Shown here: positions 420 to 37,466 of the stretch, in pieces
How positions within the stretch are numbered: position 1 is the stretch's first letter
How the letters are laid out: each line of letters opens with the position of its first letter
Made by a program: the position numbers and the translations under genes
The notes under the pieces: model-generated
What the model was told of the DNA's origin: nothing
Databases searched by the model: none
Seen by the model: only the letters and a program-made list of their open reading frames with translations
DNA from: Acidobacteriota bacterium
Lineage (GTDB): Bacteria; Acidobacteriota; Blastocatellia; Pyrinomonadales; Pyrinomonadaceae
DNA: 64,000 nucleotides
NCBI GenBank assembly: GCA_046733695.1
Contig: JBKPPU010000273.1
Location: forward strand, 2,085-66,084
Direction of reading: 5' to 3'

Positions 420-2834
420 TTAGATCACCTCAACTGTTAAGGTCACAGTGCGTGATCCGTTATGCTGGAACCAACACACACCCTCGCTCACCAGATCGCA
501 CTGCAATACATGCTGGCCTGTCGACGGCAGTGGCACTGCAGCGACAAACTCAACCGTCTCGCCAGGCATGATTGGCCGGCCCTCGGAAGGAAGGCTTTGC
601 CGAAAGTAATCGAGGTCTATTAACTTCCCGTCGACATCAAATAGATGAGCACCAAAACGAACGGCACCGACGCGAGCATCGGACGGCAACCATGCTGTCG
701 TGCCGCTATTCCTGGCCTGTACATTCAAAACGACAGCGTCACCTGAGTTGACAGTCGTTGAGGCTGCTTCGATCTTCAACTCAGCAAGTAGTCCCTCACG
801 TTGCCGGCTGTCGGGCGGTGTGGAAGATTCTCCTTTGAACAGAAAGAAGAGACGTCTGTGCCGCATCTCCTCGCGCGTCTGTGCAACGTATTCTTCGCCG
901 CTATTCTCGCCATTCAGATATGCCTCAAACTGGTCCAACGGGAGGAGCGCCGGTTCCGGCTTGAACAACGCGAGGCGTAGATCCGTGAAGCCCGCGGCCT
1001 GCGCATCCTGCCAAATCTCATTCATCTCAATGTCATTTTCGATCAACCGGTTCGTTCGCATCTCGTATTGCGACTGTGGCGACTTCGAATGGTCCGGGCC
1101 AGGCTCAGAGAACCCGGCAATTCCACCGGGCTTAAGCACGCGCGCCATTTCCATCAGCACTTTGCCCGGATTGGGAACGTGATGGAATGCGTCCCAGCAG
1201 CTAATGCGATCGACCGACTCATCCGGAAGGTCCAACGTGTGCCCATCGAAATGCACAAAACGAGGTTGAGGCTGATCGCCCACGAGCGGGCTTCGCTTGT
1301 ACAACTCTTCCCCGATCTTCAGCGCGGTAGACGACACGTCAACGGCGATAACTCGTAATCCCAACTGGCTAAGAAAACGAGAAGTCCAGCAGGAACCGGC
1401 GCCGAAGTCGACAATCGTCATATCGGGAAGCAGTTTCAGTCCCCGTACAACTTGCGCGAAATTGACGAGCAGCTCCGGTGTTTCGTTTACAGCTGCGAGG
1501 GGCTTGGCGTGCAGGTAATCCCAATTCTCCACTCGGGCGAAGAACTCTTCGGCAGTTTCACACAACTCCTCAACCGACCACTCGTTCATGCGCCGGCGAA
1601 CGTCGATGAAGTCCGGGTCAACTTCATTATCTGCTGCGATGGATTCATCCAAACTGATCGGCGGCTCGGTCAGCGCAGTAAGAGTTGCGAGTGCAGTTTT
1701 CTTCCAGCTGTATTCATGCGCGTATTGATATCTTCGTCTCTTTGACTCAGGATCCGCCGGCGCCCGCAACGTTTGCTGAAGAGCGTCGGCCATTTCCTCG
1801 ACGTTGTACGGATCGAAATAGATCGTGAAGTCGCCACCCACTTCGGGAATAGACGAACTGCGGGATGCTGCAACAGGAAGCCCGCAGGCCAGCCCTTCGA
1901 GCACGGGAAGTCCAAATCCTTCGTACAGTGATGGGAAGAAAAGACAACGAGCTTTCTGATACGTTTCAACCAGGACACGTTCGTCGATAAAACCAGTCAG
2001 CCAAACTTTCCCCTCGATTCCGAGTTTGCGGGCGAGATTCAAGAGCTGGGTTTCGCCTGCTTTGTCACAGTGACAGACGATGCACAATCGGGTGGATTGA
2101 ATGCTTTCTTGGCTTCGGTATTTCTCGTGGAGTCGGGCGAAGGCTTCTATTGCACGGTCCATGTTCTTCCGAGGATCGAATCCGCCGGGATAGATCACAT
2201 AATCGCCCCCGTTGGAAGGTACGGGGAAAACGGGCGGCTGAAATAATGAATCGACCGCGAGATGTGTGACCACGTGACGCTTGTTTGCGACCGGCAACGC
2301 GTTCAGAAAATCCGACTTGGTGTGATGAGAGATGTGGAAGAAGAGATCGAAATCCTGCGCCAAACGCTTCAGCTTATTCTTGTAAGAAACAATGCTTGCC
2401 GCGGGCCAGTGTTTCGCGTACGTGTCTTCCATCACTGAAATGATGAGGTCGAAAATCGTGACCGCATAAACGCAATTGCTGCTTTGACGAAACGGCAGAA
2501 TCACGTTGTCCATTAACGCGTTGGGCGTCCAATAGGCGTCGATGCCCAATCGCTCAATGTCGTTATTCAAGGTGTCGGAATAGAGTTGTTCGTATGCTGG
2601 GCCATCACCATTTCTGGAAACGCGCGTGTCGTAAGCATCATTCTCGAGAACGTGTAGTTTTCCACGAGCCCAGGGTGACAACACTGAGAGGTTCGCTCGC
2701 CGCGACGTGTTGAGGTAGAAATCGTTGGTAAAGTCGTACTGCAGCATCGACTCGATGCTGTTTATGAAATACTTCCCTATTCCGCGATTGATATCGGGCG
2801 TCGAGAGTGTTTGTCCGTCGATCAGTATTTTCAT
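420..2834 (-). CDS. Fusion protein: GT4 glycosyltransferase + class I SAM-dependent methyltransferase + C-terminal beta-sandwich-like domain
   Basis: 804-aa ORF. The N-terminal half has GT4 motifs (PGGFDPRKN, EGFGLPVLEGLACGLPVAAS). The middle has SAM-binding motif I (IVDFGAGSCWTSRFL) and a post-I/II region (LKPGGIAGFSEP). The last ~120 aa resemble an Ig/CARDB-like module. Confidence 0.8.
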   Translation of the reverse strand: MKILIDGQTLSTPDINRGIGKYFINSIESMLQYDFTNDFYLNTSRRANLSVLSPWARGKLHVLENDAYDTRVSRNGDGPAYEQLYSDTLNNDIERLGIDAYWTPNALMDNVILPFRQSSNCVYAVTIFDLIISVMEDTYAKHWPAASIVSYKNKLKRLAQDFDLFFHISHHTKSDFLNALPVANKRHVVTHLAVDSLFQPPVFPVPSNGGDYVIYPGGFDPRKNMDRAIEAFARLHEKYRSQESIQSTRLCIVCHCDKAGETQLLNLARKLGIEGKVWLTGFIDERVLVETYQKARCLFFPSLYEGFGLPVLEGLACGLPVAASRSSSIPEVGGDFTIYFDPYNVEEMADALQQTLRAPADPESKRRRYQYAHEYSWKKTALATLTALTEPPISLDESIAADNEVDPDFIDVRRRMNEWSVEELCETAEEFFARVENWDYLHAKPLAAVNETPELLVNFAQVVRGLKLLPDMTIVDFGAGSCWTSRFLSQLGLRVIAVDVSSTALKIGEELYKRSPLVGDQPQPRFVHFDGHTLDLPDESVDRISCWDAFHHVPNPGKVLMEMARVLKPGGIAGFSEPGPDHSKSPQSQYEMRTNRLIENDIEMNEIWQDAQAAGFTDLRLALFKPEPALLPLDQFEAYLNGENSGEEYVAQTREEMRHRRLFFLFKGESSTPPDSRQREGLLAELKIEAASTTVNSGDAVVLNVQARNSGTTAWLPSDARVGAVRFGAHLFDVDGKLIDLDYFRQSLPSEGRPIMPGETVEFVAAVPLPSTGQHVLQCDLVSEGVCWFQHNGSRTVTLTVEVI

Positions 2835-2958
2835 TTAGTGCTAGCGTACCTCAGTGTTCTCGGTGACTCTGGGTTGTTGTATCTCGAGTTTCTACAAACA
2901 CAGAAACACGGAGAACACTGAGGTTGCACAGAGAAATCCAAATTAACAAACCACTCGT

Positions 2959-4143
2959 CTACGGCCTTGCGAGCACACTCAGGTAACGACCCAACACCAC
3001 GTCGAAAGAAAATTCACGTGCCAGATATTGCCGGCCGTTTGCACCCATTCGATGGCGCATCGTTTCCTGTTCCTCCAGATACTTCACAGCCTCGCAAAAC
3101 TCATGCTTTCCTGATACCGACAAACCACCGTTGCAACGGTTCACATGACTCTGCGTAACCGCGCAGTTAGCTGAAACAACACACGGTACACCAGCGAGCC
3201 AGCCTTCCATGATGACGATCGAAAAACTCTCATTGTCAGAGAGATTAATGATCCCCAACGAATCCTTTAGCACCTGGAGTTTTCGTTCCTCCGAAACAAA
3301 CCCGAGATCGATGAAACGATCATCCACGGGTACAAGCGACTTGTCGCCGCCCCCTAGAAAGACGAGTTTTGTGTTGCGCGGATATTTTGCAGCGTATTCG
3401 AGAAACCATTCCGCGAGCAGATGAACATTCTTGCCCCGTTCTTTGCGACCTGCATAAACAAAATAGCGTTCCGGCAGTGGCTCTGCTTTCTCTGTAATGT
3501 GTCCGTTACTTGAAGGTAGTTCAACTCCGACGCCAGTAACCGCGCTCTCGACGATGCTGCGCCCGATGCGCCGCCCATATTGCTTGATAGTCAGCAGTTT
3601 TTCTTCGTAGGCGTTGAAGAATACGTGTTTCGAGTTTGCAAGCAACCGTTCCGTTGCGGCCCAGTAAAACTGCGGCTCATCGTGAAAGCACGGGATCAGC
3701 GAAATCCGGTTTGGATACTGATTGATTGCTGAATGTGTGAGGCCGTAAAAATACGGCAGCACCAGTAGCTCGTATTCGTCGCCGATATATTCCCCGAGCG
3801 CGTTTACAAGATCGCTGCTGTTGAGTCCGTAATTAAAAAAGTCTTCTTCATCACTTGCCGAAAGACTCTTGCCGCGCGACAGCTTACTGATCGCGGCGTC
3901 ATATGGCTCACGCGTTTTGTTAGTCGCGAATCTGCGCGTCTGAATTCCTTCGACTTCGTAAAGCCCGGGCTCATAGTGATCCTGCCACCAACTGTCGTAA
4001 GGCGACTTTGAACATGTCGTAAACACAAAAGTCGCAATTCCCCGTTTGTTCAATTCGCCTGCCATCCCCCGGGCCAGGCGCTCCGCACCGCCCGCGAAGT
4101 GCCCGAACCATGGAGTAATGATGCCGATCTTCTTATTGAACAT
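2959..4143 (-). CDS. GT4 glycosyltransferase
   Basis: Has the ESFSIVIMEGWLAGVPCVVS (E-x7-E region) motif and a GT-B-like N-terminus (KIGIITPWFGHFAGGAERLA). The start was moved to ATG 4143 (MFNKKIGIITPW); the ORF-track start at 4170 is also possible. Confidence 0.8.
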   Translation of the reverse strand: MFNKKIGIITPWFGHFAGGAERLARGMAGELNKRGIATFVFTTCSKSPYDSWWQDHYEPGLYEVEGIQTRRFATNKTREPYDAAISKLSRGKSLSASDEEDFFNYGLNSSDLVNALGEYIGDEYELLVLPYFYGLTHSAINQYPNRISLIPCFHDEPQFYWAATERLLANSKHVFFNAYEEKLLTIKQYGRRIGRSIVESAVTGVGVELPSSNGHITEKAEPLPERYFVYAGRKERGKNVHLLAEWFLEYAAKYPRNTKLVFLGGGDKSLVPVDDRFIDLGFVSEERKLQVLKDSLGIINLSDNESFSIVIMEGWLAGVPCVVSANCAVTQSHVNRCNGGLSVSGKHEFCEAVKYLEEQETMRHRMGANGRQYLAREFSFDVVLGRYLSVLARP

Positions 4144-24501: not shown

Positions 24502-25585
24502 GTTGCCTCAATTCAAAATCTTCTCGAAATCTGATTCGTTGCCTCAACTCGAAATCTTCTCCAAATCGCTGGGCCGGCTGACCAAAAACAAAGTTGTTAT
24601 TGGTCCAGGTACTCTCCGGTCGCCTATACAATCGCTAGCGGCTTGTTGTCAGCCGCCAACTGTAATAGTTGCTCTTGTAGTCGCTCTATTTGTCGCTTCA
24701 GTTCGGCCGGGTTCAAACCAGCGTATTCCGCCTTCAGGCGACGCTTGCTGGCGGCTGACAAATACGGTGACTGTTGTAGCCTTTGATAACGCGTTTGCGC
24801 TACCTCATACGTCGTCTTTACCTGACTGCAATGCTGTTCTTTGGACTTAAGCTTCATCAGCGGTTGAAAGTAATTCGTATAGAGACGCAGATACTCAAAT
24901 AGTTTATTGACCAAGGTCAGTTGTTCCTGGCCAGCCAGACGCTGATAGCCGACATGCCGCCGCACCATGGTGTAGTTCTTCTGCTCCACATAGCAGTTTT
25001 CTTGCGGTAGGGCCGCGACCTGGTAAAGATAAGCCGCTCCTGTTGGCAGTACTGCAACCGGTCCGCATTGATAAACTCCGAACCGTTGTCCGAGTCAATC
25101 CCGCGCAAAGGAAACGGCAAACGCGCCCGCAGCTCTTTAAGGGCCGCAAAGACCCACACCTGAGCTTTGTTCTGCACCGCTTGCACCTCGGTCCAACCAC
25201 TGTAAATATCAGTCATATCAAGCGTCTGCAGATACTCTCCTTGCACGAGACCGCCGTTATGTCCAACCAGATCGATCTCCACAAACCCCGGTCGTTGCTC
25301 ATTCCACTCCCTGAAACTGCGCAGCGGAATCTGCTTCTTCAACAGTGTTTCCGGCTTAGTTCCACCACGCCCGCGCAACTCATGCTCGCGGCGCTCGCTA
25401 CGCAACAGCCGGTCGACCGTTGATAGCGACTTCTTGTTGCGGCCGTCACCGCTTTGCGTTCCGCCATCTTTAGCCTCAACCTTTTCTCCTCCTTCGCTGC
25501 TGAAGGAGGTCATTGTGAAACTTATTTCGAGAAGATTTTTCAGTCGAGGCACCGAATGCCTTTGGAGAAGATTTTAGTGAGTCAA
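24502..25585. mobile_element. Degenerate IS-like element: frameshifted DDE transposase flanked by doubled ~30-bp inverted repeats
   Basis: The left end has two tandem copies, gttgcctcaattcaaaatcttctcgaaatc (24502-24531) and gttgcctcaactcgaaatcttctccaaatc (24538-24567). The right end has two inverted copies, atttcgagaagatttttcagtcgaggca (25524-25551) and tttggagaagattttagtgagtcaa (25561-25585). Confidence 0.65.
24624..25513 (-). pseudogene. DDE (rve/integrase-core) transposase, disrupted by a frameshift near 24990-25000
   Basis: Two overlapping ORFs (24917-25552 and 24624-24989) join as ...TRSRPYRKK / NCYVEQKNYTMVRRHVGYQRL.... The upstream part carries the rve-like core (FVEIDLVGHNGG...DMTDIYSGWTE...GIDSDNGSEFIN). 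Confidence 0.7.
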
Positions 25586-25636: not shown

Positions 25637-25710
25637 TGGGAGGTCGTCCAATGGTAGGACTCCAGACTCTGGATCTGGCTATCGGGGTTCGAGTCCCTGC
25701 CTCCCAGCCA
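25637..25710 (+). tRNA. tRNA-Gln (anticodon CTG)
   Basis: Cloverleaf folded by hand. Acceptor tgggagg/cctccca; D arm gtcc-aatggta-ggac; anticodon arm ccaga-CTCTGGA-tctgg; T arm cgggg-ttcgagt-ccctg; discriminator G; encoded CCA. Confidence 0.85.
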
Positions 25711-25802
25711 AAAAGATCACGCAGGTACGCGGTTATATCACGACGCTAGCAGCACGCTTTTTCGTTGTCCGCAGTGGGTTCGGTTGTATTGTTGTCGCCA
25801 TA

Positions 25803-25831
25803 TTGATGTTGACTGCCTGGTGATTTACAAT
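25803..25831 (+). promoter_or_regulatory. Candidate sigma70-type promoter far upstream of the TIR gene
   Basis: TTGATG (25803-25808), 17 nt, TACAAT (25826-25831). It points toward the TIR gene, about 430 nt upstream of its ATG. Confidence 0.35.
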
Positions 25832-26270
25832 GCCGCGGAATTGAACTTCGCAAATAATTGAAAAGCTGATCCTCAGCAAGTCACTGAGCCCGGCAAGCCA
25901 CCAGTGACTTCGATTGCATTCTAATCATAGACACAATCGTAGGCTCTTTTTTAAGCCATCCTACATGTTGCTTTTACTTTCCGAACTTCTGCCTTTGGCG
26001 ACGGGATGAGAGTCGAAAGAATTTCAGTTCAACTAGTTTTGACGTCAAGTGCGGTTCCACCTCACCACGTCAAGATTAAGAACGAAATTTTTTCACCGAA
26101 TTGAGCATAACAAGAGGGGGCAACTGCCTTGAGGCGCGGGCGGTAAATCTCGTGACGCCACGGCGTGTTGTTAGCTCTTGGGTCGCATTCATGGGTTCGA
26201 ATGCCTTGAGAATCCCGATCTATTTCACCAGCGCAAGAAAAGATCCCCCTTGACGCAGGAGGTTGTCGTA

Positions 26271-27662
26271 ATGGCTGACAGTGTCAAACTCTTCTATTCA
26301 TACTCCCATAAGGACGTCGAGCTTCGTAATGAACTGGACAAGTACCTGATGATTCTGAAGAGAACCGGAATCATCGATTGCTGGCATGACCGGCAGATCA
26401 CGGCTGGAGCGGAATGGAAAGGCAACATCGATGCTGAGCTCAATTCCGCTGACGTCATCCTGCTTCTCATCAGCGCGGACTTTTTCTACTCCGATTACTG
26501 TTATGACGTCGAACTCTCCCGGGCCATGCAGAGACATGAACGAGGCGAAGCAGTTGTCATTCCCGTGATTCTGCGTCCCTTCCCCTGGAAAAAAGCCTCC
26601 TTCAGTAAACTGCAAGCACTACCTACGGACGGAGCACCGGTAACAACCTGGCCCCAAGGAAAGGACGCCGCTTTTACAGACATTTCAGAAGGCATAGAGA
26701 AGGTTGTGAATGAGATTCTCAGAAAGCGAAAGTCTCCATTGCGCACAACCAAGCCCGCGGTTTATCTGGCCGAGACGACTAATGAGCGTCGCATGCAAGA
26801 CTATCGGGACGGAATTGCGGCTGAACTGAAAGCATATGGTTACCCAGTTGTTCCTGTTCCAAATGTCGACCTACCTGATGAATCACCCCAGTATGAAGAA
26901 GAGATCCGGCGTTATCTAAAAGGTGTAAAAGTCTCGGTCCATCCAATTGGAAATAAGTACGGCAGAATCATTGCGGGAACAAACGACACGTCGGCTGTGA
27001 AGCTGCAAAACATGATTGCAGAGGAACTTCGCAGGCAAGGACGGCTAGAGAGTCTTATATGGATTCCGCCAGAGGTGGCAGCAGAAGGCGATCGGCAAAT
27101 TGCTTTTCAGAGATATCTCGAGACTGATCCGCAAGCACAACTGAATGCTGAGTTATCACGCAAGCCGTTTGAATCCGTCAAAGATCGCATCATTGATAAG
27201 TTGAAGAAATACGATCGGCTGCCATTCCAGCACAGCTCCGCAGCAACGAAGAGCGTCTATCTGATGTGTGAGCAAAGGGACAAGCAGTTGGTGGCCGCAG
27301 TCAAAGACATTATTTACCGTAATGGCTTTGAAGTATTTTTGCCGCCCAGCGTGACTGACCAGGGACCCGCCGCTACCTTTCATGAGCGATGCCTGACATC
27401 GTGTGACGCAACCTTGATTTATTACGGAGCGCCCAACGATGACTGGGTGAGTCTCATGATCCTGGATATACGAGATGCGCCCACCCGACGTGTGCGTGGT
27501 GACTTCGTTTGCAAAGCTCTCTTTCTTGCCGAACCCCACGTTAATTATCAAACCCACACCGCCGAAATATTGAAGTATGACGGAAAGTCTCTTGAGAACT
27601 CGTTGATGCCGTTTATTGAATGCCTTCAAGGAAAGAGCCCGAATGGAGGCGCGTTGCAATGA
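26271..27662 (+). CDS. TIR domain protein with two additional tandem alpha/beta (TIR-like/flavodoxin-like) modules
   Basis: AGGAGG-N8-ATG at 26271. The N-terminal TIR_2-type pattern is KLFYSYSHKDVELRNEL...ADVILLLISADFFYSDYCYDVEL...VVIPVILRP. The C-terminal ~300 aa has two segments, each opening with VYL (AVYLAETTNERR..., SVYLMCEQRDKQ...). Confidence 0.8.
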   Translation: MADSVKLFYSYSHKDVELRNELDKYLMILKRTGIIDCWHDRQITAGAEWKGNIDAELNSADVILLLISADFFYSDYCYDVELSRAMQRHERGEAVVIPVILRPFPWKKASFSKLQALPTDGAPVTTWPQGKDAAFTDISEGIEKVVNEILRKRKSPLRTTKPAVYLAETTNERRMQDYRDGIAAELKAYGYPVVPVPNVDLPDESPQYEEEIRRYLKGVKVSVHPIGNKYGRIIAGTNDTSAVKLQNMIAEELRRQGRLESLIWIPPEVAAEGDRQIAFQRYLETDPQAQLNAELSRKPFESVKDRIIDKLKKYDRLPFQHSSAATKSVYLMCEQRDKQLVAAVKDIIYRNGFEVFLPPSVTDQGPAATFHERCLTSCDATLIYYGAPNDDWVSLMILDIRDAPTRRVRGDFVCKALFLAEPHVNYQTHTAEILKYDGKSLENSLMPFIECLQGKSPNGGALQ

Positions 27663-30600
27663 AACAAGATCGTACCAATCCCTTTCCGGGATTACGCCCT
27701 TTTGACGTTGATGAAGATGAGCTGTTCTTCGGCCGGTCTCATCAAACTGATGAGCTTCTGTCTCGGTTAAGGCAATCGCGCTTCACAGCAGTAATTGGCA
27801 CTTCCGGCAGTGGCAAGTCGTCGTTGGTACGTGCCGGATTGCTACCGGCTTTGAAACGTGGACTGATGGCGGCAGCCGGTTCGCGTTGGCGCGTCGCACT
27901 CTTTCGACCGATCAACGATCCGATTGGAAACTTGACTCGGGCACTCAAGAGAGAAGGAGTGTTTGTCGATGCAATAGCCGACGACCAGCAGCTTTCGTTC
28001 ATTGATAGCACCCTGCGTAGCAGTTCGTTGGGATTAGTTGAACTGCTACGACAGTCACGGATGAAAGCAGACGAGAATCTGCTGATAGTGGTCGATCAGT
28101 TTGAAGAACTGTTTCGCTTTGAGGAGACCTTTACTTGCGAGAACCCGGCCGACGAAGCCCTGGCGTTCGTCAAGTTATTATTGGCAGCTACCACGCGGCA
28201 GCGTGAAGTGCCAATTTATCTTGTACTGACGATGCGTTCGGATTATCTGGGAGAAAGTGCGAGGTTTCGTGGGTTGCCGGAAGCAATCAATGAGGGGCAA
28301 TACCTGGTCCCGCGGATGAACGATGACGAACGGCGCCAGGCTATTACCGCTCCGGTTGCGGTCGCCAAAGGCCAAATTAGCGAACCGCTGGTTAACCGGC
28401 TGCTCAATGATGTAGGCGATGATCCAGGCAAGTTGCCATTACTGCAACATGCTCTGATGCGAACCTGGGAAAACTGGGAGAACGACGGGAGAGCCGGCGG
28501 TGCCCCGCTGAGTATCTCAAATTACGCGGCAATCGGTGGTCTTTCGGGCTCTCTCTCCAAACACGCCAACGATATTTATGACGAATTGTCTGAAGGACAG
28601 CAATTAGTTGCCGAAAGAGTTTTCAAAGCCTTGACCGCGAAAGGACCGGATGGACGAGGCGTTCGTACACCGCGCACCTTTGGGGAACTCTGCGCTATCG
28701 CCACCGTCGCTGGATCAAGTGCCAAAACAATCGAGCCTGACGTTCGAGCCGTTATTGATTCCTTTCGCGGCGAGGGGCGCTCGTTCCTGATGCCGCCGCC
28801 CAGGGATGTGGAAAATCCCGACCGGATAATCCCGCTGACCGCAGACACTCTGATCGACATCTCGCATGAGAGTTTGATCCTGGGTTGGGATAGGTTGCAG
28901 CAGTGGGTTGAAGATGAAGCAGACGCGGCACGCATGTATCAGCGTTTGTCAGAGCACGCCGTGCTTTTTGACAAGGGCATTGAAAAGCGTTTGAGTCCAC
29001 CGGCATTGCCTGTTTTTCTGAGATGGCGTGACGAGACTCACCCGAATACCGCTTGGGGTCGTCGTTACTTTAATCCAGCCTGGAGTTCGCTTTTCAAGGA
29101 GGGGGGATCGAAAACCAGCGAATATGATACGGAATTTGATCGTGCAGATGCTTTCCTCGATGAGAGTAACGATGCATATGAGGCTGAGTTGGCCGTAAAA
29201 GAAAAGGCCGCAAAGCAACGCGTAAGAAGACTGGTCTATATCGCAGTGTCATTCGCATTGCTTTTCCTCTTGGCTACGGTTTTTGCTGGTGTGGCCGTCG
29301 CGCAGTGGAGAAAGGCTCAATCCGCTCTGCAACGAGCTGAAGCCGCGGAAGCTGTGACGAAACAGCAGAAGGAGGAGGCTGAGAGACAAAGGGCATTGGC
29401 TGTAGAAGGAAGATTAGAGGCCGAAAAACAAAGTGCGCTGGCTGAAGCACAAGCAAACGAGGCTGTGAGACAAAAAGCAGACGCTGTGACTCAAAGAGAA
29501 CTGGCGCGGAGAGCAGAGAGTCAGGCCGTTGCAGCTAAAGCGGAAGCCGTGAAGGATCGCAACGCTGCGGAAATGTCAGCGCAGGTAGCATCGGTGGCCC
29601 AGAAGAAGGCCCAAGACGCGCTCGCGGAGGCTCAAACGAGCAAAGAGGAAGCTTTGACACAAAAAGAGGAAGCAGAAACGCTCCGGGACCTAGCTGAATC
29701 CGCTACTGCTACAGCCAACGAACAAAAGCAGCGGGCTACCGAACAGCGCATCCGTGCCAACTCGGAGTTCCAAAAAGCAGACGAAACGTTGATTACGTTG
29801 CGAAACATAGATAATCAGACTCGACACCTCAATGCTATCAATCGCAAGAACGACCCTATCAGCACAGCTGTTTTCGCGGACAGTGAACATGCATTTATCA
29901 GCAGTGGAAATGATGCAGCTCTATTTGAGCGGCGCTCGGGCTCGTGGGAATTCAAAGAGTCCGATTTTCGTGATGTTCCTCGCCTCGTCTACAAACTCCA
30001 GACTGAGTCTAATCTCGCGGCTCATATGCAAGACGTGCTTCCTTCCGAAACCGAAGACCGAATAGGAAAATTCGGAGGTGCTGAAAAACCCGATCAGTCG
30101 CTTATTACTTCACTCGTCAGCGGTTTTAATACTGCGCTGAAGAATTCGACTCTGTATAAGAAGTCCGCCTTTCGCTACGTTAAGCTACGACCAGAAACAC
30201 AAGCTCTTCTCGATAAATTCAATCAAGATCAAGGCTCGGTAAACCTGGCCCAGCTCAATCGTATGTTACTTGAGGATGCTTATCCATTAGAGATTGCGCA
30301 GGTGAACCACTTTAATGAGGCCCAGAAGTTTCCGAGTCACTATGTTTTTGCCCTCGACACTAACTTTAAGCGGGTTGCGGCGAAATCTCAGGACAGGGAG
30401 ATCGATATTTTCGATTCAGCGGGAAAACAGATCGGAACGAAGACGAATGACTATCTATTCATTGACTCTGTCGATTTTAGCCCGCAAGGCAATTACATCT
30501 GGTCGCTAGCCCGCGAAGACGTTGAGAAGCGTGAGAATTATCAAATTCTGATCTGGAAAAACGATGAAAAAGACGATGAGCCAAGACGTTTGGACTTTAC

Positions 30601-31459
30601 CAAACCGATTAACCGCGCAGTCATGAACCATAACGAAACACAGATTGCGATAAACTTTTCCTCATCCACTGAGATTCAGTTGTGGGATATCAAAAACAAA
30701 ACAAAGATTCGTTCTCTGACAGGAACAGAAAAATTATCGGCTGGCGATTTCCTACCGACTAACGATTCCGGCAACGCTGAGAAAACCGATCTGATTACGC
30801 ACATCGCTTACAGCAACGACGGAAAATATATCGTCGCAACTTTCAAAAACCACAGAAACCTGCGTCTGTGGGATGCAACGACGGGAGAACTGCTCCACGA
30901 CATGGACGGGCACCATTGTCAGGTTAACAGTGCAGAGTTCAGCAACGACGACACTCTGATTGTCAGCGCGGGCGAAGACGGCGCGGCCTTTGTTTGGGAC
31001 CGAAAAAGCGGGCGCGTTAAGCACGAATTACGTGGCCACCTAGGATTGATGATTAGGCACGTGCGAAAGGGATTCCGAGCCTGGTTCCCGCCGATACCGT
31101 TCCCGCTAGATCTCGATCTACAAAGTCGAGAGGGCGCGTTCGTGCCTCTGAATAGCGCAAAGTTTAACCACGACGGTACCAAAGTGGTAACGGCTAGCGT
31201 CGATGGTCGCATTGCGCTGTGGACATGGAAGAAGAATGACCCCTTCGCGGTGAAATCTCTTGAGCTGAAGGGTTACACGGGAAGCGTGCTCAATGCAGAG
31301 TTCAGTCCGGACGATGAATTTGTGATTGCCGGTGGTCAGGATGGAGCTGCTCGAATCTGGCGTGTCCCAAAGCCTCTTTCTGACAAGAGCCCGGCGGCTA
31401 AATCGTGCAAGGATGCGAGCGAAATCCGATCAGCTAAACACGACAGTGATATGCAATAA
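27659..31459 (+). CDS. STAND-class P-loop NTPase (nSTAND-like) + single TM helix + long coiled coil + WD40 beta-propeller
   Basis: The start overlaps the TIR gene stop in an ATGA, preceded by GGAGG. Motifs include NPFPGLRPFDVDEDELFFGR, Walker A GTSGSGKSSLVRAGLLPAL, Walker B LLIVVDQFEELF, MRSDYLG and LPLLQHAL. The TM helix is LVYIAVSFALLFLLATVFAGVAVA. An A/E/Q/K-rich coiled coil of about 160 aa follows. C-terminal WD40 signatures are LRLWDATTGELLHDMDGH, SAGEDGAAFVWD, SVDGRIALW and GGQDGAARIWRV. Confidence 0.85.
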   Translation: MKQDRTNPFPGLRPFDVDEDELFFGRSHQTDELLSRLRQSRFTAVIGTSGSGKSSLVRAGLLPALKRGLMAAAGSRWRVALFRPINDPIGNLTRALKREGVFVDAIADDQQLSFIDSTLRSSSLGLVELLRQSRMKADENLLIVVDQFEELFRFEETFTCENPADEALAFVKLLLAATTRQREVPIYLVLTMRSDYLGESARFRGLPEAINEGQYLVPRMNDDERRQAITAPVAVAKGQISEPLVNRLLNDVGDDPGKLPLLQHALMRTWENWENDGRAGGAPLSISNYAAIGGLSGSLSKHANDIYDELSEGQQLVAERVFKALTAKGPDGRGVRTPRTFGELCAIATVAGSSAKTIEPDVRAVIDSFRGEGRSFLMPPPRDVENPDRIIPLTADTLIDISHESLILGWDRLQQWVEDEADAARMYQRLSEHAVLFDKGIEKRLSPPALPVFLRWRDETHPNTAWGRRYFNPAWSSLFKEGGSKTSEYDTEFDRADAFLDESNDAYEAELAVKEKAAKQRVRRLVYIAVSFALLFLLATVFAGVAVAQWRKAQSALQRAEAAEAVTKQQKEEAERQRALAVEGRLEAEKQSALAEAQANEAVRQKADAVTQRELARRAESQAVAAKAEAVKDRNAAEMSAQVASVAQKKAQDALAEAQTSKEEALTQKEEAETLRDLAESATATANEQKQRATEQRIRANSEFQKADETLITLRNIDNQTRHLNAINRKNDPISTAVFADSEHAFISSGNDAALFERRSGSWEFKESDFRDVPRLVYKLQTESNLAAHMQDVLPSETEDRIGKFGGAEKPDQSLITSLVSGFNTALKNSTLYKKSAFRYVKLRPETQALLDKFNQDQGSVNLAQLNRMLLEDAYPLEIAQVNHFNEAQKFPSHYVFALDTNFKRVAAKSQDREIDIFDSAGKQIGTKTNDYLFIDSVDFSPQGNYIWSLAREDVEKRENYQILIWKNDEKDDEPRRLDFTKPINRAVMNHNETQIAINFSSSTEIQLWDIKNKTKIRSLTGTEKLSAGDFLPTNDSGNAEKTDLITHIAYSNDGKYIVATFKNHRNLRLWDATTGELLHDMDGHHCQVNSAEFSNDDTLIVSAGEDGAAFVWDRKSGRVKHELRGHLGLMIRHVRKGFRAWFPPIPFPLDLDLQSREGAFVPLNSAKFNHDGTKVVTASVDGRIALWTWKKNDPFAVKSLELKGYTGSVLNAEFSPDDEFVIAGGQDGAARIWRVPKPLSDKSPAAKSCKDASEIRSAKHDSDMQ

Positions 31460-31544
31460 CGTCTCGTTAATGACTGCGCACTCTGAATTACATTGGTAGT
31501 CGTGGAGGGGAGCTCAGGTCGAAGACCCTCAGGTCTTAAAAACC

Positions 31545-32309
31545 TCAAGCGCTTGCAGACTGCGCATATCGCAAGCGACGTTGTCGAAGAATTTCAACGA
31601 TCGCGAACGCGGTCTCTTCCATCCGTTCGTGGCATATTGTGTCCAACCTCTCAGCCTCATCTTCCCATGCAGGCGACACGGATCCATGACGATACAAATG
31701 ATTATTGACTCGCTCCGAGGCATGAAACGCACTCCCACAAGGTCTCCAGTCAAATAACGGTGTCGGTGGTGATCGCTGCATTTCCAGTGGAACAGTCATC
31801 TCGCCCTTCAAAACAATTGGCACAATCGCGCCACCCGGTTCCCGAGGGGGCGGGTTGGTTCTACGCCAGTGCCGCATTTGAGATTTGAAGTCAAGACACC
31901 TCCACCAACCAGGACGCTGAGGACGTTGGTCTCGGAGTTCGGGAATCGGGGCCTCGCGACATAAGTCGAACCATGGTCGAAACTCTTTGGAAAGCATCGT
32001 ACTGAACTCGAATTTGCACCAACGTGACCCAAAATATTCAGGTGATAGAAACGCCAGTAGGACTTCACTCTCTTCGATCGCGAACGTGAGGGATCTTATA
32101 AGTTCAAAATCAGAGAACCAAGGTCTACTCAAATAATGAAGCGTATACCCGTCATAGAATATCGGTGGCTCTCCGATCGTTTGTGCTATGACAGGACGAA
32201 GAACTGTTTGCAAAAAGTGGTCAACCAGCGGTTTGATTATCTGTACCTCGTTTTCGCGGGTGGTGTAGCTCACGAATACGTGGAACCGTTCAGGTGGATG
32301 AGTAGTCAT
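31545..32309 (-). CDS. TIR domain protein (second, divergent copy with inserted segments)
   Basis: FHVFVSYTTRENE..., EVLLAFLSPEYFGSRWCKFEF (TIR WCxxE-type motif) and IVPIVLKG. 254 aa, convergent with the STAND gene. Confidence 0.7.
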   Translation of the reverse strand: MTTHPPERFHVFVSYTTRENEVQIIKPLVDHFLQTVLRPVIAQTIGEPPIFYDGYTLHYLSRPWFSDFELIRSLTFAIEESEVLLAFLSPEYFGSRWCKFEFSTMLSKEFRPWFDLCREAPIPELRDQRPQRPGWWRCLDFKSQMRHWRRTNPPPREPGGAIVPIVLKGEMTVPLEMQRSPPTPLFDWRPCGSAFHASERVNNHLYRHGSVSPAWEDEAERLDTICHERMEETAFAIVEILRQRRLRYAQSASA

Positions 32310-32336
32310 TCTACGAGAGTACGCAGCATCGGGGAC

Positions 32337-32904
32337 TCAAGGTGAGACATTGAAGGAGATCGTCGCCGTAGTCTTGCCGCCGAAATAGTTGCTTGCTTGT
32401 CCTGTCAACGTCCCGCTGCCTGAAGTGAAGATCCAGCCGGCCTGACATTCCATCTTAAAATCCACATCGTAGAGCAGGAAGATGCTCGTCAATACATTTC
32501 CATTGGAATCAGGCGCGAGGTTCTGAGTCATTGGAGCAAGCGTCGCATTTTTGTTCTGTGCGATGTTCTCACCGCCCGGCGGCGCCTTGCAGGTCCAGAC
32601 CAGCTCGCCGCTGCCGGCGGATGGATTAATCTGGATTTGCTTCACACCTTCAGGATCGTTGGCTTTCAACGTAATCCGATATTTTTCACCGCGCTTGACG
32701 TTGATCGTCGGATTACCGTTATGGTCGGACTGCGCGTTGGTGGCGTAGTTAAAAACGTTCCAGATAAGTGAAGGTGGCGTGGAATCCGATTTGGGCAATC
32801 TTCACACCTTTCTGGCAGCTCGCAATGACCAGACAGATCACAACCATGAAGAAGCAACCTAATCGCCATCTCGGCGCCAGTCTCATGTAAGCCTTAGTTG
32901 ACAT
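32337..32904 (-). pseudogene. Putative lipoprotein whose signal peptide and mature part are in different frames (or a TTG-initiated 153-aa ORF)
   Basis: Frame A (from ATG 32904 or 32886) encodes M..RLAPRWRLGCFFMVVICLVIASC with lipobox IASC, and stops at 32749. Frame B (32798-32337) encodes a 153-aa beta-rich protein. Frame B is closed by TGA just upstream of 32798, so a 1-nt shift near 32791-32803 would be required. Confidence 0.4.
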
Positions 32905-32924
32905 TGCCTGACCTCTATTTTGCG

Positions 32925-33257
32925 TTACTTCAATTCGCCTGGCCGATAGCCACAATGAACGCACCTCATTGCGAATGCGTTCTGGTACCACCACTTCCGA
33001 TAGAAATTCTTATTGCAACGCGGGCACTTCCAATTTAGTCGCCAGATGCCTGTTGCGACGATGCCCAGGAACCAGGCTGTGCTCAAAATCTGAGCCACAC
33101 CCTCAGAATTCAACCACCGGCCGAGGGGAACAGCAACATACAAGATCGCAAAAAACCCGCTGAGGGCGAGACTCCAAAACACAAGGTTTCGCTTGCGATA
33201 TTCCCAAAGCGCCTCCTGCCTCGCAATCATTGAGTCCATATCTCCTTTAAATCTCAT
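32925..33257 (-). CDS. Small membrane protein with two TM helices and a C-terminal CxxC...CxxC zinc ribbon
   Basis: LVFWSLALSGFFAILYVAV and TAWFLGIVATGIW hydrophobic segments, then KCPRCNKNFYRKWWYQNAFAMRCVHCGY. The start is ambiguous (33257, 33239 or 33230); the ORF-track start at 33341 is unlikely. Confidence 0.55.
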   Translation of the reverse strand: MRFKGDMDSMIARQEALWEYRKRNLVFWSLALSGFFAILYVAVPLGRWLNSEGVAQILSTAWFLGIVATGIWRLNWKCPRCNKNFYRKWWYQNAFAMRCVHCGYRPGELK

Positions 33258-33404
33258 GTGCGAAAATTGAAGCACACCTGCCTTCCGTGGACCAAGCCCA
33301 TATATGCCACGAATGAACAAAGTCAGCGTGACACCACACACTACGTTCGAAATGATGTTACACTGTGCGCTAAATTGAATGCGGATTTAGCAACGGAGCA
33401 CGTT

Positions 33405-33698
33405 ATGAAACTTACGCGCGACATTCAGAGCCTTAGTACTTTCAAACGCGATACCGCGAAGATCGTTCGCCAGCTAAAGAAGACCGGGCAGCCAGTTGTT
33501 CTGACCGTTAATGGCAAAGCTGAACTTGTTGTACAGGACGCGGAAAGCTACCAAAAGCTCCTTGAAGCGCAGGATCGGATGGAAGCAATCGAGGGTATAA
33601 GGCGTGGATTGGAGAGCATGAAGCGGAATGCAGGGAAACCGGCAGAAAAATTCTTCCGGGAGTTTTTTGCTGAGAAAGGCATTTCGGAGCGGGAATGA
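33405..33698 (+). CDS. Type II antitoxin, Phd/YefM family
   Basis: GGAG-N6-ATG. The sequence MKLTRDIQSLSTFKRDTAKIVRQLKKTGQPVVLTVNGKAELVVQDAESYQKLLE is a classic Phd/YefM N-terminus. Confidence 0.8.
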   Translation: MKLTRDIQSLSTFKRDTAKIVRQLKKTGQPVVLTVNGKAELVVQDAESYQKLLEAQDRMEAIEGIRRGLESMKRNAGKPAEKFFREFFAEKGISERE

Positions 33699-33985
33699 AG
33701 CGTTACGCAGTTATCTTCGAGCTCTCTGCTCAGGCAGACGTCCGTGGATCTTATGAGTGGGGTTGCCGGGTTTGGGGAAAGAGAGAAGCGCAACGATGGG
33801 TCCGCGAATTACGGATAGCAATTTTCAGCCAGCTCAGCCTCGTGCCCAAGGGGTTTCCGATCGCGCCTGAGGACGACGAGTTCTCTGAACAGATTCGCCA
33901 GATGATTGTGGGCCGCTATCGTGTATTGTTCACAATCAGAAAGCACAAGGTTCACGTTCTTCACGTTAGAGGCGCTCACGTCTAA
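33695..33985 (+). CDS. Type II toxin, ParE/RelE superfamily
   Basis: ATGA overlap with the antitoxin. 96 aa ending ...IVGRYRVLFTIRKHKVHVLHVRGAH, typical of ParE/RelE-fold toxins. Confidence 0.75.
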   Translation: MKRYAVIFELSAQADVRGSYEWGCRVWGKREAQRWVRELRIAIFSQLSLVPKGFPIAPEDDEFSEQIRQMIVGRYRVLFTIRKHKVHVLHVRGAHV

Positions 33986-34082: not shown

Positions 34083-34415
34083 GTGGCGAAGGACCGCACA
34101 GATCTGATGCAGGGCACGCTGGAGTTGTTGATTCTGAAAACTCTGGAGCGTGAATCGTTGCACGGGTATGGGATAGTGCAGAGAATTCACGAATCTGCCG
34201 AAGACTTACTCAAGGTTGAAGATGGATCGCTGTATCCGGCGCTCTACCGCATGCAGGAACGCGGTTGGATCAAGTCAGAGTGGGGAGTTTCAGAAAACAA
34301 CCGTCGCGCCAGATTTTACAAACTGACCAGAGCCGGACAAAAACAACTCGAACGTGAGCGCGCCAACTGGGAACGCGTGTCAAAAGCGATTTCCAGAATC
34401 TTACAAACTGCCTGA
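34083..34415 (+). CDS. PadR family transcriptional regulator
   Basis: GTLELLILKTLERESLHGYGIVQRI...GSLYPALYRMQERGWIKSEW...RFYKLTRAGQKQL. Confidence 0.9.
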   Translation: MAKDRTDLMQGTLELLILKTLERESLHGYGIVQRIHESAEDLLKVEDGSLYPALYRMQERGWIKSEWGVSENNRRARFYKLTRAGQKQLERERANWERVSKAISRILQTA

Positions 34416-34423
34416 ACGCATCG

Positions 34424-34846
34424 ATGAACTACTTACTAACACGCTTACAAAAGCCCACGGAGCTCGAGCTGGATGTTGAAGAGGAGTTGCGTCTTCATAT
34501 TGATTTGCTTCTGCGTGACAACATTCGACGAGGCATGTCTCCCGAAGAAGCTCGGACCGCAACGCTGAAACGGTTCGGAAATCTCGACAGAGTCAAGAAC
34601 GAGTGTGTGGAGATATGCAGACGAAGCCGCCCGCTTCAACGCGCGGTTAAGTTAGGTGTGATTCTTCTTATTCTGACCGGACTTATCGTGCGTATTACCA
34701 GCACAGATTTTCATGTAGGCCGTATCGGTAACACACTGATTATGATCGCTATCACAGGCCGTTTATTACTTTATGTCCGCAGTCTGACTCCGTCACGTTT
34801 TCTCCCAAGAAACAAAACGACTTCGTTCTCACTCTTCAATAACTGA
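34424..34846 (+). CDS. 'Permease prefix' domain protein with TM segments (stand-alone)
   Basis: ELDVEEELRLHIDLLLRDNIRRGMSPEEARTATLKRFGNLDRVKNE is the N-terminal prefix normally fused to acidobacterial MacB-like duplicated permeases. Here it is followed only by two hydrophobic helices. Confidence 0.6.
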   Translation: MNYLLTRLQKPTELELDVEEELRLHIDLLLRDNIRRGMSPEEARTATLKRFGNLDRVKNECVEICRRSRPLQRAVKLGVILLILTGLIVRITSTDFHVGRIGNTLIMIAITGRLLLYVRSLTPSRFLPRNKTTSFSLFNN

Positions 34847-34854
34847 GAATCCGA

Positions 34855-35727
34855 ATGCTCGCCATCGAAGGCTTGAATAAGACCTACCAGAGCGGCGTTC
34901 ACGCACTGAAAAGCATTAATCTCGAAGTACCCCCGGGGATGTTCGGACTGCTGGGGCCGAATGGCGCCGGCAAGACGACGCTCATGAAAATTCTGGCAAC
35001 GCTGCTGGAGCCTGATTCGGGCACGGTGCGGATGCGCGACACCGACCTCATCTCGAACAAGCATCGAGCGCGAATGCTGCTTGGTTATCTGCCACAGGAT
35101 TTCGGATTTTATCCCAGTCTAACAGCCGAACAGACGCTCCATTACTTCGCGAGACTGAAAGGTGTTCACGACAGAAAGGAGCGTCACTCCCTGGTCAACG
35201 CTTTACTGGAAAGAGTAAACCTCGAAAGCGCGCGCAAACAGAAAGTGGGCGGATTCTCGGGTGGCATGCGGCAACGCCTGGGGATCGCGCAAGCGCTGAT
35301 CGGAAAGCCCGCTCTGCTGATCGTCGATGAGCCGACTGCAGGTCTCGATCCCGAAGAGCGAGCGCGTTTTCACAACCTGCTCGCGGAAACGTTTGCCGAA
35401 GAGAGTGTAGTGCTTCTTTCGACACATATCGTCTCCGACGTTTCAAACCTCTGCTCAAACATGGCCATCATCCGGCAGGGCCAGATCATCGCCTCGTGCG
35501 TTCCATCTCAAGCCATCAAGGAGTTGACCGACTCAGTTTGGGAAGCAACGTTAACTCGAGAACAGGTCGATCGAGTGAAGCCTCGTTGCAAACTACTTTC
35601 CTCACACATGTATAACGGCATGATGCGCATCCGAGTCGTCTCGCCGAGTGAACGACCTGGGGAAGAATTCAATCAGGTCACGCCGACAATAGAAGACTAC
35701 TACTTCAGCCTGGTCTCTCAGTCGTGA
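34855..35727 (+). CDS. ABC transporter ATP-binding protein (ABC-2 type exporter)
   Basis: Walker A GLLGPNGAGKTT, signature FSGGMRQRLGIAQAL, Walker B LLIVDEPTAGLD. Confidence 0.9.
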   Translation: MLAIEGLNKTYQSGVHALKSINLEVPPGMFGLLGPNGAGKTTLMKILATLLEPDSGTVRMRDTDLISNKHRARMLLGYLPQDFGFYPSLTAEQTLHYFARLKGVHDRKERHSLVNALLERVNLESARKQKVGGFSGGMRQRLGIAQALIGKPALLIVDEPTAGLDPEERARFHNLLAETFAEESVVLLSTHIVSDVSNLCSNMAIIRQGQIIASCVPSQAIKELTDSVWEATLTREQVDRVKPRCKLLSSHMYNGMMRIRVVSPSERPGEEFNQVTPTIEDYYFSLVSQS

Positions 35728-37466
35728 TGGCCCATCCATTTCACACCGCCTTCTTTACCGTATTTCGCACTGAGGTTCTGCTTAACTCGAGGCGGGTGGC
35801 CCCATATCTTATGGCCTTGCTTTGTAGTGGTAATGCACTTCTTTGGTGGGCGCGGGGCCCGGCCCACGGAAGGGGCCTGGCGACAAACAGCGAGGCGTTC
35901 ATTGCCGGCGTTTTGCCGATCTATTCGTTCATGACGCTGCCGTTGTTTACAGCCGTGATCATGGCAGATCCGGTTATCCGAGATTACCGCGCAGAGATCG
36001 GGCCATTAATTTTTTCAAAGCCTGTGGGCCGCGCGATCTATCTTCTGGGAAAATTCTTCGGCAGCTTCTTTGTGCTCGTCTGCGGTCAGGCGGCTTTCGT
36101 AATAACGTTGTTCGTGCTGCAGTGGTTCAGCGGGCCAGGCGTGACGCAGTTGCCGGAGGTGAAAGTCTTCCCTTACCTCAAACACTTCCTGGTCTTTGTC
36201 GTTATTTCTCACCTGGTTTTGGCTGCGATCTACTTTGCCGTCGGAACGCTGACGCGGAATGCCAAAATCGTATATGCACTCGGGGTTTGTTTTTATCCGC
36301 TCATCATCTGCTACAACCTTTTCTTCCTGAATGGCCTGCCGTCGCTTTGGCAACGGACGCTCGATCCTCTGCTCATGAGGTGGGGCCAAAGAAGAGGCAG
36401 CAACGTTCACACGCTCAGTGCTGAGAGGTTCAATTCGTTGGTTGTTACCTATAACTGGGAGCTGATTACCAACCGCGCGGTGATGTTGTTGATTGCCGCG
36501 GGAATACTCACACTGGTTTATCGTCGCTTCATCATTGGCGAGCCGCCGCAAAAGGTTCATTTCTCGTTTCTCAACCTTTCGACAGCAAGCGAGAGGATTT
36601 CGTTCGAATCCGAAATCACCTGGGACGAGATCGATCGCGAAGCTCGTCGAACACCCGTTACTATTCCAAGCGTCAACAGCGACAACAGCGGTATTCGCGC
36701 GGGCTTTAGAAAACTCGGCGCGGCCCTCGCCACTGAATTTCGTTTGCTTCTTGCTGAACGCAGCCTTGTGGCGATCATTCCCATTGCGGTGTTGCTCTCG
36801 ACGATGGAAGTTATTTTTTGGCCTGCGCGAGGCGAAGGGTCCTACACAGCAGCATACGTCGCCAACATTGCCGGGAATTCGCTGCTCTTCATGATCGGCA
36901 TCAGCATCTTCTACATCGGAGAGGCTCTGCAACGCGATCGGGATTTGAACGTTGAGTCACTAGTTTGGAGTCAGCCGATTTCAAACTTCGTGCTGCTGTT
37001 TTCTAAATTCCTTGCGACGCTCTCGCTGGTATGCATTCTCCTGGTTTCGGTGGGTTTGATCGCGGTGATGACGCAAACATTGAAGGGGAACTGGCCAGTT
37101 GAGTTGACGACGTACTTACGAGTTTACTTCTGGATCCTGATTCCGAATGCGATCTTCCTCAGCGCGATAGCAACGTTCCTCAAAGTTCTCCTGCACGATC
37201 GCTATCTTGCTTACACGGCGGCGATTGGGATCGGCATCGGGCTCTTCTACCTGTACAGCCAGGGCTACAACGGCTGGCTCTACAATCCGCTGCTGTTTAG
37301 AGTTTGGAAGTGTGAAGATTTACTGGGTGGTAATAATCTCTCTCAAATCGCGCAACACAGGATGTATGTTCTGATCGTCGCGCTCGTTTGTCTTGGCCTC
37401 GCACATCTCTTCTATCAACGCCGCTCCACCGGGGTCACATCACGGCAACGTTCTAACATCAATTAA
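35724..37466 (+). CDS. ABC-2 family exporter permease, large multi-TM protein
   Basis: 580-aa hydrophobic ORF. Its start (GTGATG) overlaps the ATPase gene stop. Confidence 0.7.
   Translation: MMAHPFHTAFFTVFRTEVLLNSRRVAPYLMALLCSGNALLWWARGPAHGRGLATNSEAFIAGVLPIYSFMTLPLFTAVIMADPVIRDYRAEIGPLIFSKPVGRAIYLLGKFFGSFFVLVCGQAAFVITLFVLQWFSGPGVTQLPEVKVFPYLKHFLVFVVISHLVLAAIYFAVGTLTRNAKIVYALGVCFYPLIICYNLFFLNGLPSLWQRTLDPLLMRWGQRRGSNVHTLSAERFNSLVVTYNWELITNRAVMLLIAAGILTLVYRRFIIGEPPQKVHFSFLNLSTASERISFESEITWDEIDREARRTPVTIPSVNSDNSGIRAGFRKLGAALATEFRLLLAERSLVAIIPIAVLLSTMEVIFWPARGEGSYTAAYVANIAGNSLLFMIGISIFYIGEALQRDRDLNVESLVWSQPISNFVLLFSKFLATLSLVCILLVSVGLIAVMTQTLKGNWPVELTTYLRVYFWILIPNAIFLSAIATFLKVLLHDRYLAYTAAIGIGIGLFYLYSQGYNGWLYNPLLFRVWKCEDLLGGNNLSQIAQHRMYVLIVALVCLGLAHLFYQRRSTGVTSRQRSNIN

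Follow-up and report, generated by a model that had tools for sequence, protein, structure and literature searches.

A stand-alone TIR-domain gene in a tRNA-Gln-adjacent variable slot of a Pyrinomonadaceae genome, with a zinc-ribbon membrane protein and a lipoprotein as probable chance neighbors

The window, meaning the whole 64,000-nt stretch of DNA analyzed here, comes from an Acidobacteriota bacterium of the family Pyrinomonadaceae (GCA_046733695.1, contig JBKPPU010000273.1). The open reading frame (ORF) list and the sequence placed three adjacent minus-strand genes at 31545–33257, encoding a small zinc-ribbon protein with two transmembrane (TM) helices (gene referred to as ZnTM), a lipoprotein, and a 254-aa TIR protein. 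The 20-nt gap between the ZnTM stop codon and the signal-peptide ATG at 32904, the 27-nt gap between the lipoprotein stop codon and the TIR ATG, and the 85 nt separating the TIR stop (31545) from the stop of the neighboring STAND gene (31459) were all present in the sequence as the original prediction had described them. That prediction had further treated the trio as a co-transcribed set in which a TIR effector works with envelope-located partners and belongs either to the STAND system, as its second module, or to an independent membrane-linked TIR system. A scan for promoters and terminators between the three genes gave no signal and was uninformative on co-transcription, which the short gaps and the absence of a predicted terminator make physically plausible. 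PADLOC and NCBIfam searches returned no meaningful match for any of the three proteins, and the Rfam scan matched a tRNA alone. Loci used for comparison are numbered L001–L035, and homologous proteins carry P-numbers.

ZnTM (32925–33257, minus strand), called from its ORF and its synteny, encodes a protein of 110 aa. The ORF, two hydrophobic segments (residues 24–47 and 53–71, the helices being joined by a 9-residue loop), and a C-terminal CPRC...CVHC zinc ribbon were all found as predicted, and the MRFK start was matched by the homologs in L010, L032, and L034. Six K/R residues precede the first helix and nine follow the second. By the positive-inside rule, this distribution places the C-terminal ribbon on the cytoplasmic side, so that the ribbon is predicted to be cytoplasmic and not envelope-facing. 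The homolog search showed that the family is narrow, with 10 clusters. ZnTM was always divergent from a block encoding PadR, a 140-aa protein, an ABC ATPase, and an ABC permease (34083–37466 in the window), and this synteny beside the PadR-ABC operon was seen in L008, L009, L010, L032, and L034. Four of these five other ZnTM loci lacked this TIR gene; ZnTM was accompanied by an intact lipoprotein gene in L010 and L034 and stood alone in L008 and L009. The sole other ZnTM-TIR adjacency was that of L032, which is the orthologous locus. The dN/dS of ZnTM was low (0.17–0.30), as is typical of a core gene. These comparisons indicate that ZnTM is a conserved syntenic core gene, with or without a lipoprotein neighbor.

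The lipoprotein gene (32337–32904, minus strand) has a signal peptide, an IASC lipobox, and an Ig-like beta-sandwich domain and is interrupted at ~32799 by a single inserted nucleotide. The predicted lipoprotein was therefore borne out in its parts but not as a single ORF. The signal peptide, MSTKAYMRL...VIASC, begins at 32904, and its own frame stops at 32749 (…FFMVVICLVIASC), whereas the ~150-aa beta-rich domain runs from 32798 to 32337 in a different frame, leaving the lipobox and the hydrophobic core out of frame with the mature domain. In P0034, P0035, L010, and L034, signal peptide and mature domain were in frame, and the closest homologs (P0034, 95% identity; P0035, 93% identity) are one continuous ORF of 185–188 aa reading …ASCQRGVKLPKSDSTPP…. 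Alignment to the L010 and L034 DNA and to P0034/P0035 revealed an extra A at ~32799, with GTGAAG-A-TTGCCC in the window versus GTGAAG-TTGCCC in the homologs. The inserted A lies five codons past the lipobox Cys and outside any homopolymer run. The gene was intact in L010, L011, and L034, and the window copy has either become a pseudogene recently or carries an error of assembly. The part downstream of the frameshift had a dN/dS of 0.09 in comparison with L010, suggesting that the lesion, if real, is recent. Programmed frameshifting was considered and rejected, because all homologs are in frame at that point.

The lipoprotein family is common in Pyrinomonadaceae (72 clusters). The AF2 model of the homolog P0034 (pLDDT 86.9) had fold matches of the arrestin-N/RhoGDI type, which identifies the domain as an Ig-like sandwich of this kind. 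The neighbors of the lipoprotein gene varied across the 24 loci outside the window, and none of the 24 had the TIR gene of the window. A scan of genome contigs with the lipoprotein as query gave only one locus, where the match starts 123 nt from the contig end and so leaves no upstream context. In a different lineage (L016, L017, L020, and L027), a protein with a zinc ribbon and two TM segments is encoded upstream of the lipoprotein. This protein was rejected as a ZnTM homolog, since the BLASTP comparison gave E = 16 and the two are not detectably related.

The TIR gene (31545–32309, minus strand) encodes a stand-alone TIR-domain protein of 254 aa carrying VFVSY...WCKFEF with Glu101. The Pfam TIR_2 model (PF13676) matched it with 28.3 bits against a cut-off of 28, over residues 70–107 alone, and 9 of the 10 relatives tested also passed this threshold. 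The family homolog search yielded 33 clusters of 240–290 aa, all metagenomic. In the family alignment (A1), 30 columns were invariant, including the betaA motif FxSYT and E101 in SxWCxFE, and Glu101 was invariant in 25 family members. The AF2 model built from A1 (pLDDT 88.7, pTM 0.87) showed a beta-alpha core with strands at residues 10–14, 50–53, 83–88, and 161–166, a long insertion between alphaC and betaD (~108–160), and a C-terminal helical hairpin (189–253). When this model was compared with the PDB by Foldseek, the top 24 matches were all TIR domains (SPARTA TIR-APAZ, MyD88, RPS4, and ThsB), with scores that were modest because of the insertions (best E 1.7e-3; TM-score to the target 0.5–0.6). 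The A1 profile was also run against PDB sequences, and 24/24 matches with E < 1 were TIR chains. The SxWCxFE motif of the family aligned to the SkWCxxEL catalytic-Glu motif of the L6 TIR and Cat1, which indicates that E101 is the counterpart of the catalytic Glu. The 254-aa protein belongs to the TIR domain superfamily (PF13676/PF01582) on the grounds of its threshold score, its fold, and its catalytic motif, and the predicted TIR fold with Glu101 and large insertions was thus confirmed.

When 1.84 billion representatives were searched exhaustively with the family profile, 295 relatives of the TIR protein were recovered, and the full-length architecture was found in only ~5 representatives (50% identity) of this collection. 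The other profile relatives were mostly stand-alone proteins of 170–220 aa that match the N-terminal half; the shorter relatives tested (e.g., P0127, P0133, P0134, and P0140) reached 32–45 bits with TIR_2 across most or all of the domain. The insertion is family specific, spans ~55 aa, and contains a conserved RPWFDLCR...PIxELRDxRP... stretch, and the C-terminal hairpin of the family comprises ~65 aa with an RHGSVSPxWE motif. Near-invariant Cys residues are found at positions 98, 117, and 191 and in WxC and CxxxM motifs (C138 and C226 in the window protein), of which Cys117, Cys191, C138, and C226 are carried by the insertion and the hairpin. The stand-alone TIR subfamily defined by this insertion and hairpin is rare and uncharacterized.

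The genomic contexts of the TIR family were compared in ten cases (L001–L006, L032, L033, L035, and the window), and no shared neighbor was found among them. A ZnTM or lipoprotein homolog occurred in 0/8 of the non-orthologous loci (L001–L006, L033, and L035); most TIR-family contigs are short (1–3 kb), and distant partners could escape detection. The neighbors were often other defense-type genes (small TIRs, SIR2, a caspase-like peptidase, and a patatin fragment), together with an integrase and IS elements. In L001 and L004, two small TIR genes in divergent orientation lay near the family member, with SIR2 also nearby in L001, and L004 further contained an integrase, an IS1595 transposase, and tRNA-Pro around a TIR-family copy that is split. 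The context of L003 comprised glyoxalase, GNAT, and another TIR, that of L006 trypsin-like and caspase-like peptidases, and that of L035 the patatin fragment. A WD40-ending gene converges on the TIR-family gene in L001, where the contig ends, and a convergent TPR-repeat gene lies downstream in L033. In the flanks available for the intact members of L002, L003, L005, L006, and L035, there was no gene of the STAND, WD40, or TPR kind.

The TIR gene is the first gene of a variable segment (25711–32336) that extends from the lipoprotein stop codon to the 3′ end of tRNA-Gln (CUG) (25637–25710, plus strand), the conserved right-hand anchor, and whose content differs in L008, L010, L011, L032, and L034. 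Relatives match the window DNA as far as 32336, one base past the lipoprotein stop codon, and again from ~25716, by the 3′ end of the tRNA. In the window, this slot is occupied by the TIR gene and by a convergent TIR-STAND operon. The first gene of the operon (26178–27662, plus strand; probable start 26271) encodes a ThsB-like TIR protein of 494 aa with a 300-aa C-terminal region, which matched the PADLOC ThsB model at 1e-55. The second (27620–31459, plus strand) encodes an nSTAND1 NTPase-TM-coiled coil-WD40 protein and converges on the TIR gene.

Other alleles of the slot were found in the relatives. In L008, PadR and ZnTM are followed directly by tRNA-Gln, and in L011 the lipoprotein gene is followed by a 99-aa TM gene, tRNA-Gln, and cutC. 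In L010, ZnTM and the lipoprotein gene lead into unrelated DNA; L010 and L011 were 99.8% identical up to 18 nt beyond the lipoprotein stop codon and divergent thereafter. In L034, the same two genes are followed by another unrelated gene. An att-like direct repeat of the tRNA 3′ end was searched for between 24400 and 33400 and was not found, the only repeats being WD40-repeat echoes and the inverted repeats of an IS remnant; there was likewise no integrase ORF within 25711–32336. The IS remnant lies across the tRNA from the slot, consists of an rve-domain ORF with 23-nt inverted repeats, and is absent from L011. The documented alleles, empty as well as differently filled, indicate that the slot is a tRNA-Gln-adjacent hotspot in Pyrinomonadaceae.

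In the orthologous locus L032, ZnTM is followed by the TIR gene and tRNA-Gln, and the 5.8-kb TIR494-STAND operon is absent. Linkage to the TIR-STAND pair is thus not seen in this relative, which has ZnTM-TIR without the lipoprotein and without STAND. A clean deletion there has removed the lipoprotein gene except for its last ~29 nt, which, along with the same intergenic sequence, still precede the TIR start codon, indicating that ZnTM, lipoprotein, and TIR were all present in the common ancestor of L032 and the window. Since then, the lipoprotein gene has disappeared from L032 and, if the lesion is real, acquired its frameshift in the window; the STAND operon is a separate indel. The TIR copy of L032 shares 66% amino acid identity with the window protein and lacks the RHGSVSPxWE segment, and the dN/dS of the TIR gene between the window and L032 was 0.55. 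This copy may thus be undergoing decay, and the locus is accordingly weaker proof of STAND-free TIR function.

At both loci with this TIR gene downstream, the lipoprotein gene is inactivated, by a frameshift in the window and by the clean deletion in L032. This double inactivation could reflect selection against read-through or co-expression.

Taken together, we consider that the trio most probably consists of chance neighbors brought together by genome architecture, the TIR gene being a single-gene module in a tRNA-adjacent variable slot (probability roughly 0.72). ZnTM and the lipoprotein gene, both conserved membrane genes of a housekeeping type, are inherited vertically in a Pyrinomonadaceae lineage beside the PadR-ABC transporter operon, and the hypervariable slot opens directly past the lipoprotein stop codon and runs to the 3′ end of tRNA-Gln(CUG). 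The tight spacing of the trio reflects a slot that starts right at the stop codon of a core gene. The cargo of the slot in the window is two independent pieces, namely the single-gene TIR module and the convergent operon of the ThsB-like TIR and nSTAND1-WD40 genes. Given the short gaps, and with no terminator found, the TIR gene would probably be expressed through read-through that starts at the ZnTM promoter, as a consequence of its landing site and not of a shared function. From the conserved Glu only, we infer that the TIR protein consumes NAD+ by itself, as an NADase or ADPR-cyclase acting through Glu101. Its insertion and C-terminal hairpin would provide regulation or oligomerization, and the gene may act as a stand-alone defense gene of the abortive-infection or toxin type.

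A point against this explanation is that, in each of the two genomes with the TIR gene at this position, ZnTM lies ahead of it on the same strand, so that a functional pairing of ZnTM with TIR is possible in the lineage of the window and L032.

Among the alternatives, a broader view of the TIR family is unlikely but deserves mention. In this case, the TIR proteins would be a self-contained sensor-effector family in which the Cys-bearing insertion and the RHGSVSPxWE hairpin gate the NADase, or else accessory TIRs recruited by repeat-containing STAND NTPases. A narrower version, in which the TIR gene is the third component of the TIR-STAND system in the window, for example one that the activated STAND oligomer recruits as an additional effector or as a source of signal, seems less probable still. 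The position of the TIR gene is consistent with such a role, since it is convergent with the STAND gene at 85 nt and within the same variable segment, and so are the convergent WD40-ending gene at the contig end of L001, the convergent TPR-repeat gene of L033, and the further TIR genes near the family member in L001, L003, and L004. The loss of the conserved 10-aa motif from the STAND-free L032 copy also fits this role. However, L032 keeps the TIR gene at the same site without the STAND pair, and the five intact members named above have no such gene in their available flanks. Moreover, STAND genes with WD40 or TPR repeats are generally abundant in such soil-bacterial defense islands, which makes their co-occurrence with a TIR gene weak evidence.

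The envelope-partner system of the original prediction, in which ZnTM and the lipoprotein would sense or execute at the envelope while the TIR protein signals or depletes NAD, is very improbable. Such a system would agree with the common strand of the three genes, their gaps of 20 and 27 nt without a predicted terminator, and the occurrence of all three in this order in the ancestor of the window and L032. The lipoprotein also follows the non-homologous zinc-ribbon protein with two TM segments in the other lineage, which hints at a link between ZnTM and the lipoprotein but not at one with the TIR gene. On the other side, the lipoprotein gene is damaged in both TIR-bearing loci, and the genes were found separately in other genomes, so that the three genes do not form a conserved unit. 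ZnTM is found without TIR in L010 and L034 with an intact lipoprotein gene and in L008 and L009 alone, the eight non-orthologous TIR-family contexts lack both partners, and the lipoprotein stop codon is exactly where homology with relatives is lost. The absence of the partners at these eight loci and the STAND-free state of L032 speak against both proposed forms of the system, the second STAND module and the membrane-linked TIR system.

A Thoeris-like pair, in which the TIR protein makes a nucleotide signal, ZnTM is the membrane-disrupting effector, and the lipoprotein is irrelevant, is equally hard to credit: the adjacency survives in L032 after the lipoprotein deletion, and many newly described Thoeris types combine a TIR with a small TM effector (bioRxiv 10.64898/2025.12.03.692087), but ZnTM keeps its position beside PadR in four relatives without TIR and has the low dN/dS of a core gene, the TIR family was never found with a ZnTM homolog elsewhere in the contexts examined, and neither protein matches ThsB or PADLOC models.

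The TIR module preferred here, with ZnTM and the lipoprotein as chance neighbors, resembles stand-alone bacterial TIRs (PF13676; NADase-type, cf. plant L6/RPS4/RUN1 and the CRISPR-associated Cat1) in its flavodoxin-like core and its SxWCxxE motif with an invariant Glu, and in being a single gene located in variable or defense regions. Unlike these proteins, the window family has the ~55-aa alphaC-betaD insertion, the ~65-aa hairpin, and the near-invariant Cys residues. Stand-alone TIRs of this kind were explicitly set aside by Yirmiya et al. With Thoeris (a ThsB TIR and an adjacent effector; types I–XI), the window TIR shares its small size, its location among defense-type genes, and its proximity to the ThsB-like 494-aa protein. 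In contrast to Thoeris, PADLOC gave nothing for the 254-aa protein at E ≤ 0.1, including no ThsB model match, the NCBIfam Thoeris type III ThcB4 model reached 13.5 bits against a cut-off of 220, and no adjacent effector was conserved over the 10 contexts. The lack of a ThsB match and of a conserved effector neighbor indicates that the 254-aa protein is not a ThsB/Thoeris member. The slot is similar to tRNA-adjacent islands and defense hotspots, with cargo abutting the tRNA 3′ end, conserved flanks, empty and differently filled sites, and defense-type content. It differs from a classical tRNA-integrated island in having neither an integrase nor a direct repeat of the tRNA 3′ end, the sole mobile-element trace being the IS remnant, with its rve domain, beyond the tRNA.

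These results keep a false "membrane-linked TIR system" out of the catalog. What remains of value is a documented tRNA-Gln-adjacent hotspot in Pyrinomonadaceae and a stand-alone TIR subfamily that is rare and well conserved, has an unusual insertion, and is a reasonable, if low-priority, candidate for NADase activity and phage defense.

The lipoprotein gene of the three-gene set (window 32337-32904, minus strand) is disrupted in the assembled sequence by a 1-base insertion at position 32799, which shifts the reading frame five codons past the lipobox Cys. At the orthologous locus L032, the lipoprotein orthologue was absent through a clean deletion. The lipoprotein is therefore inactivated in both of the loci that have the downstream TIR gene.

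On the other side of the zinc-ribbon membrane protein gene (ZnTM), a Phd/YefM-ParE toxin-antitoxin pair (33258-33985, plus strand) was found between ZnTM and PadR. Its orthologues in the related loci L008 and L010 share 85-94% amino acid identity with it and sit beyond the ABC permease, on the far side; the module is relocated inside the same neighbourhood.

The convergence of the window STAND-WD40 gene on the TIR gene is mirrored in two other contigs, in both cases by partial genes that extend past the contig ends: a gene ending in WD40 repeats (L001 9028-9615, minus strand) and one ending in weak TPR repeats (L033 2112-2993, minus strand), each converging on a TIR-family gene. Two small TIR genes, one encoding 137 aa and the other 113 or 142 aa, were observed side by side and divergent from the TIR-family gene in two contigs (L001 6870-8795 and L004 4495-6419), and the 137-aa protein shares 34% identity with the TIR domain of the ThsB-like 494-aa protein in the window. 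In L004, the TIR-family gene is split into ORFs of 156 and 88 aa.

Within the 494-aa protein, the C-terminal ~300 aa that follow the ThsB-like TIR domain (window 26838-27659) gave no Pfam match, and its ORF overlaps the start of the STAND gene by 43 nt. Between tRNA-Gln and cutC, the window carries an IS remnant (24515-25539) that is missing from the L011 locus. The remnant is bounded by 23-nt inverted repeats (24515-24537 and 25517-25539), which enclose overlapping, apparently frameshifted ORFs, one carrying an rve integrase-core domain.

Lipoprotein homologues were also found in other settings. In L012, the strand opposite the homologue encodes, ~1 kb upstream of it, a 951-aa protein with the N-terminal TIR-like motif DIFISYSHSD (1079-3934, minus strand), a proximity that is probably incidental. 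In another Pyrinomonadaceae lineage, the gene ahead of the lipoprotein (L016 4407-4883 for this upstream gene; likewise in L017, L020, and L027) encodes a protein of 158 aa that has two TM helices and, at its N terminus, a zinc ribbon (CSSC...CNYC). BLASTP detected no homology between this protein and ZnTM (E = 16); a zinc-ribbon membrane protein with a lipoprotein may be a recurring pairing, or the likeness may be a coincidence.
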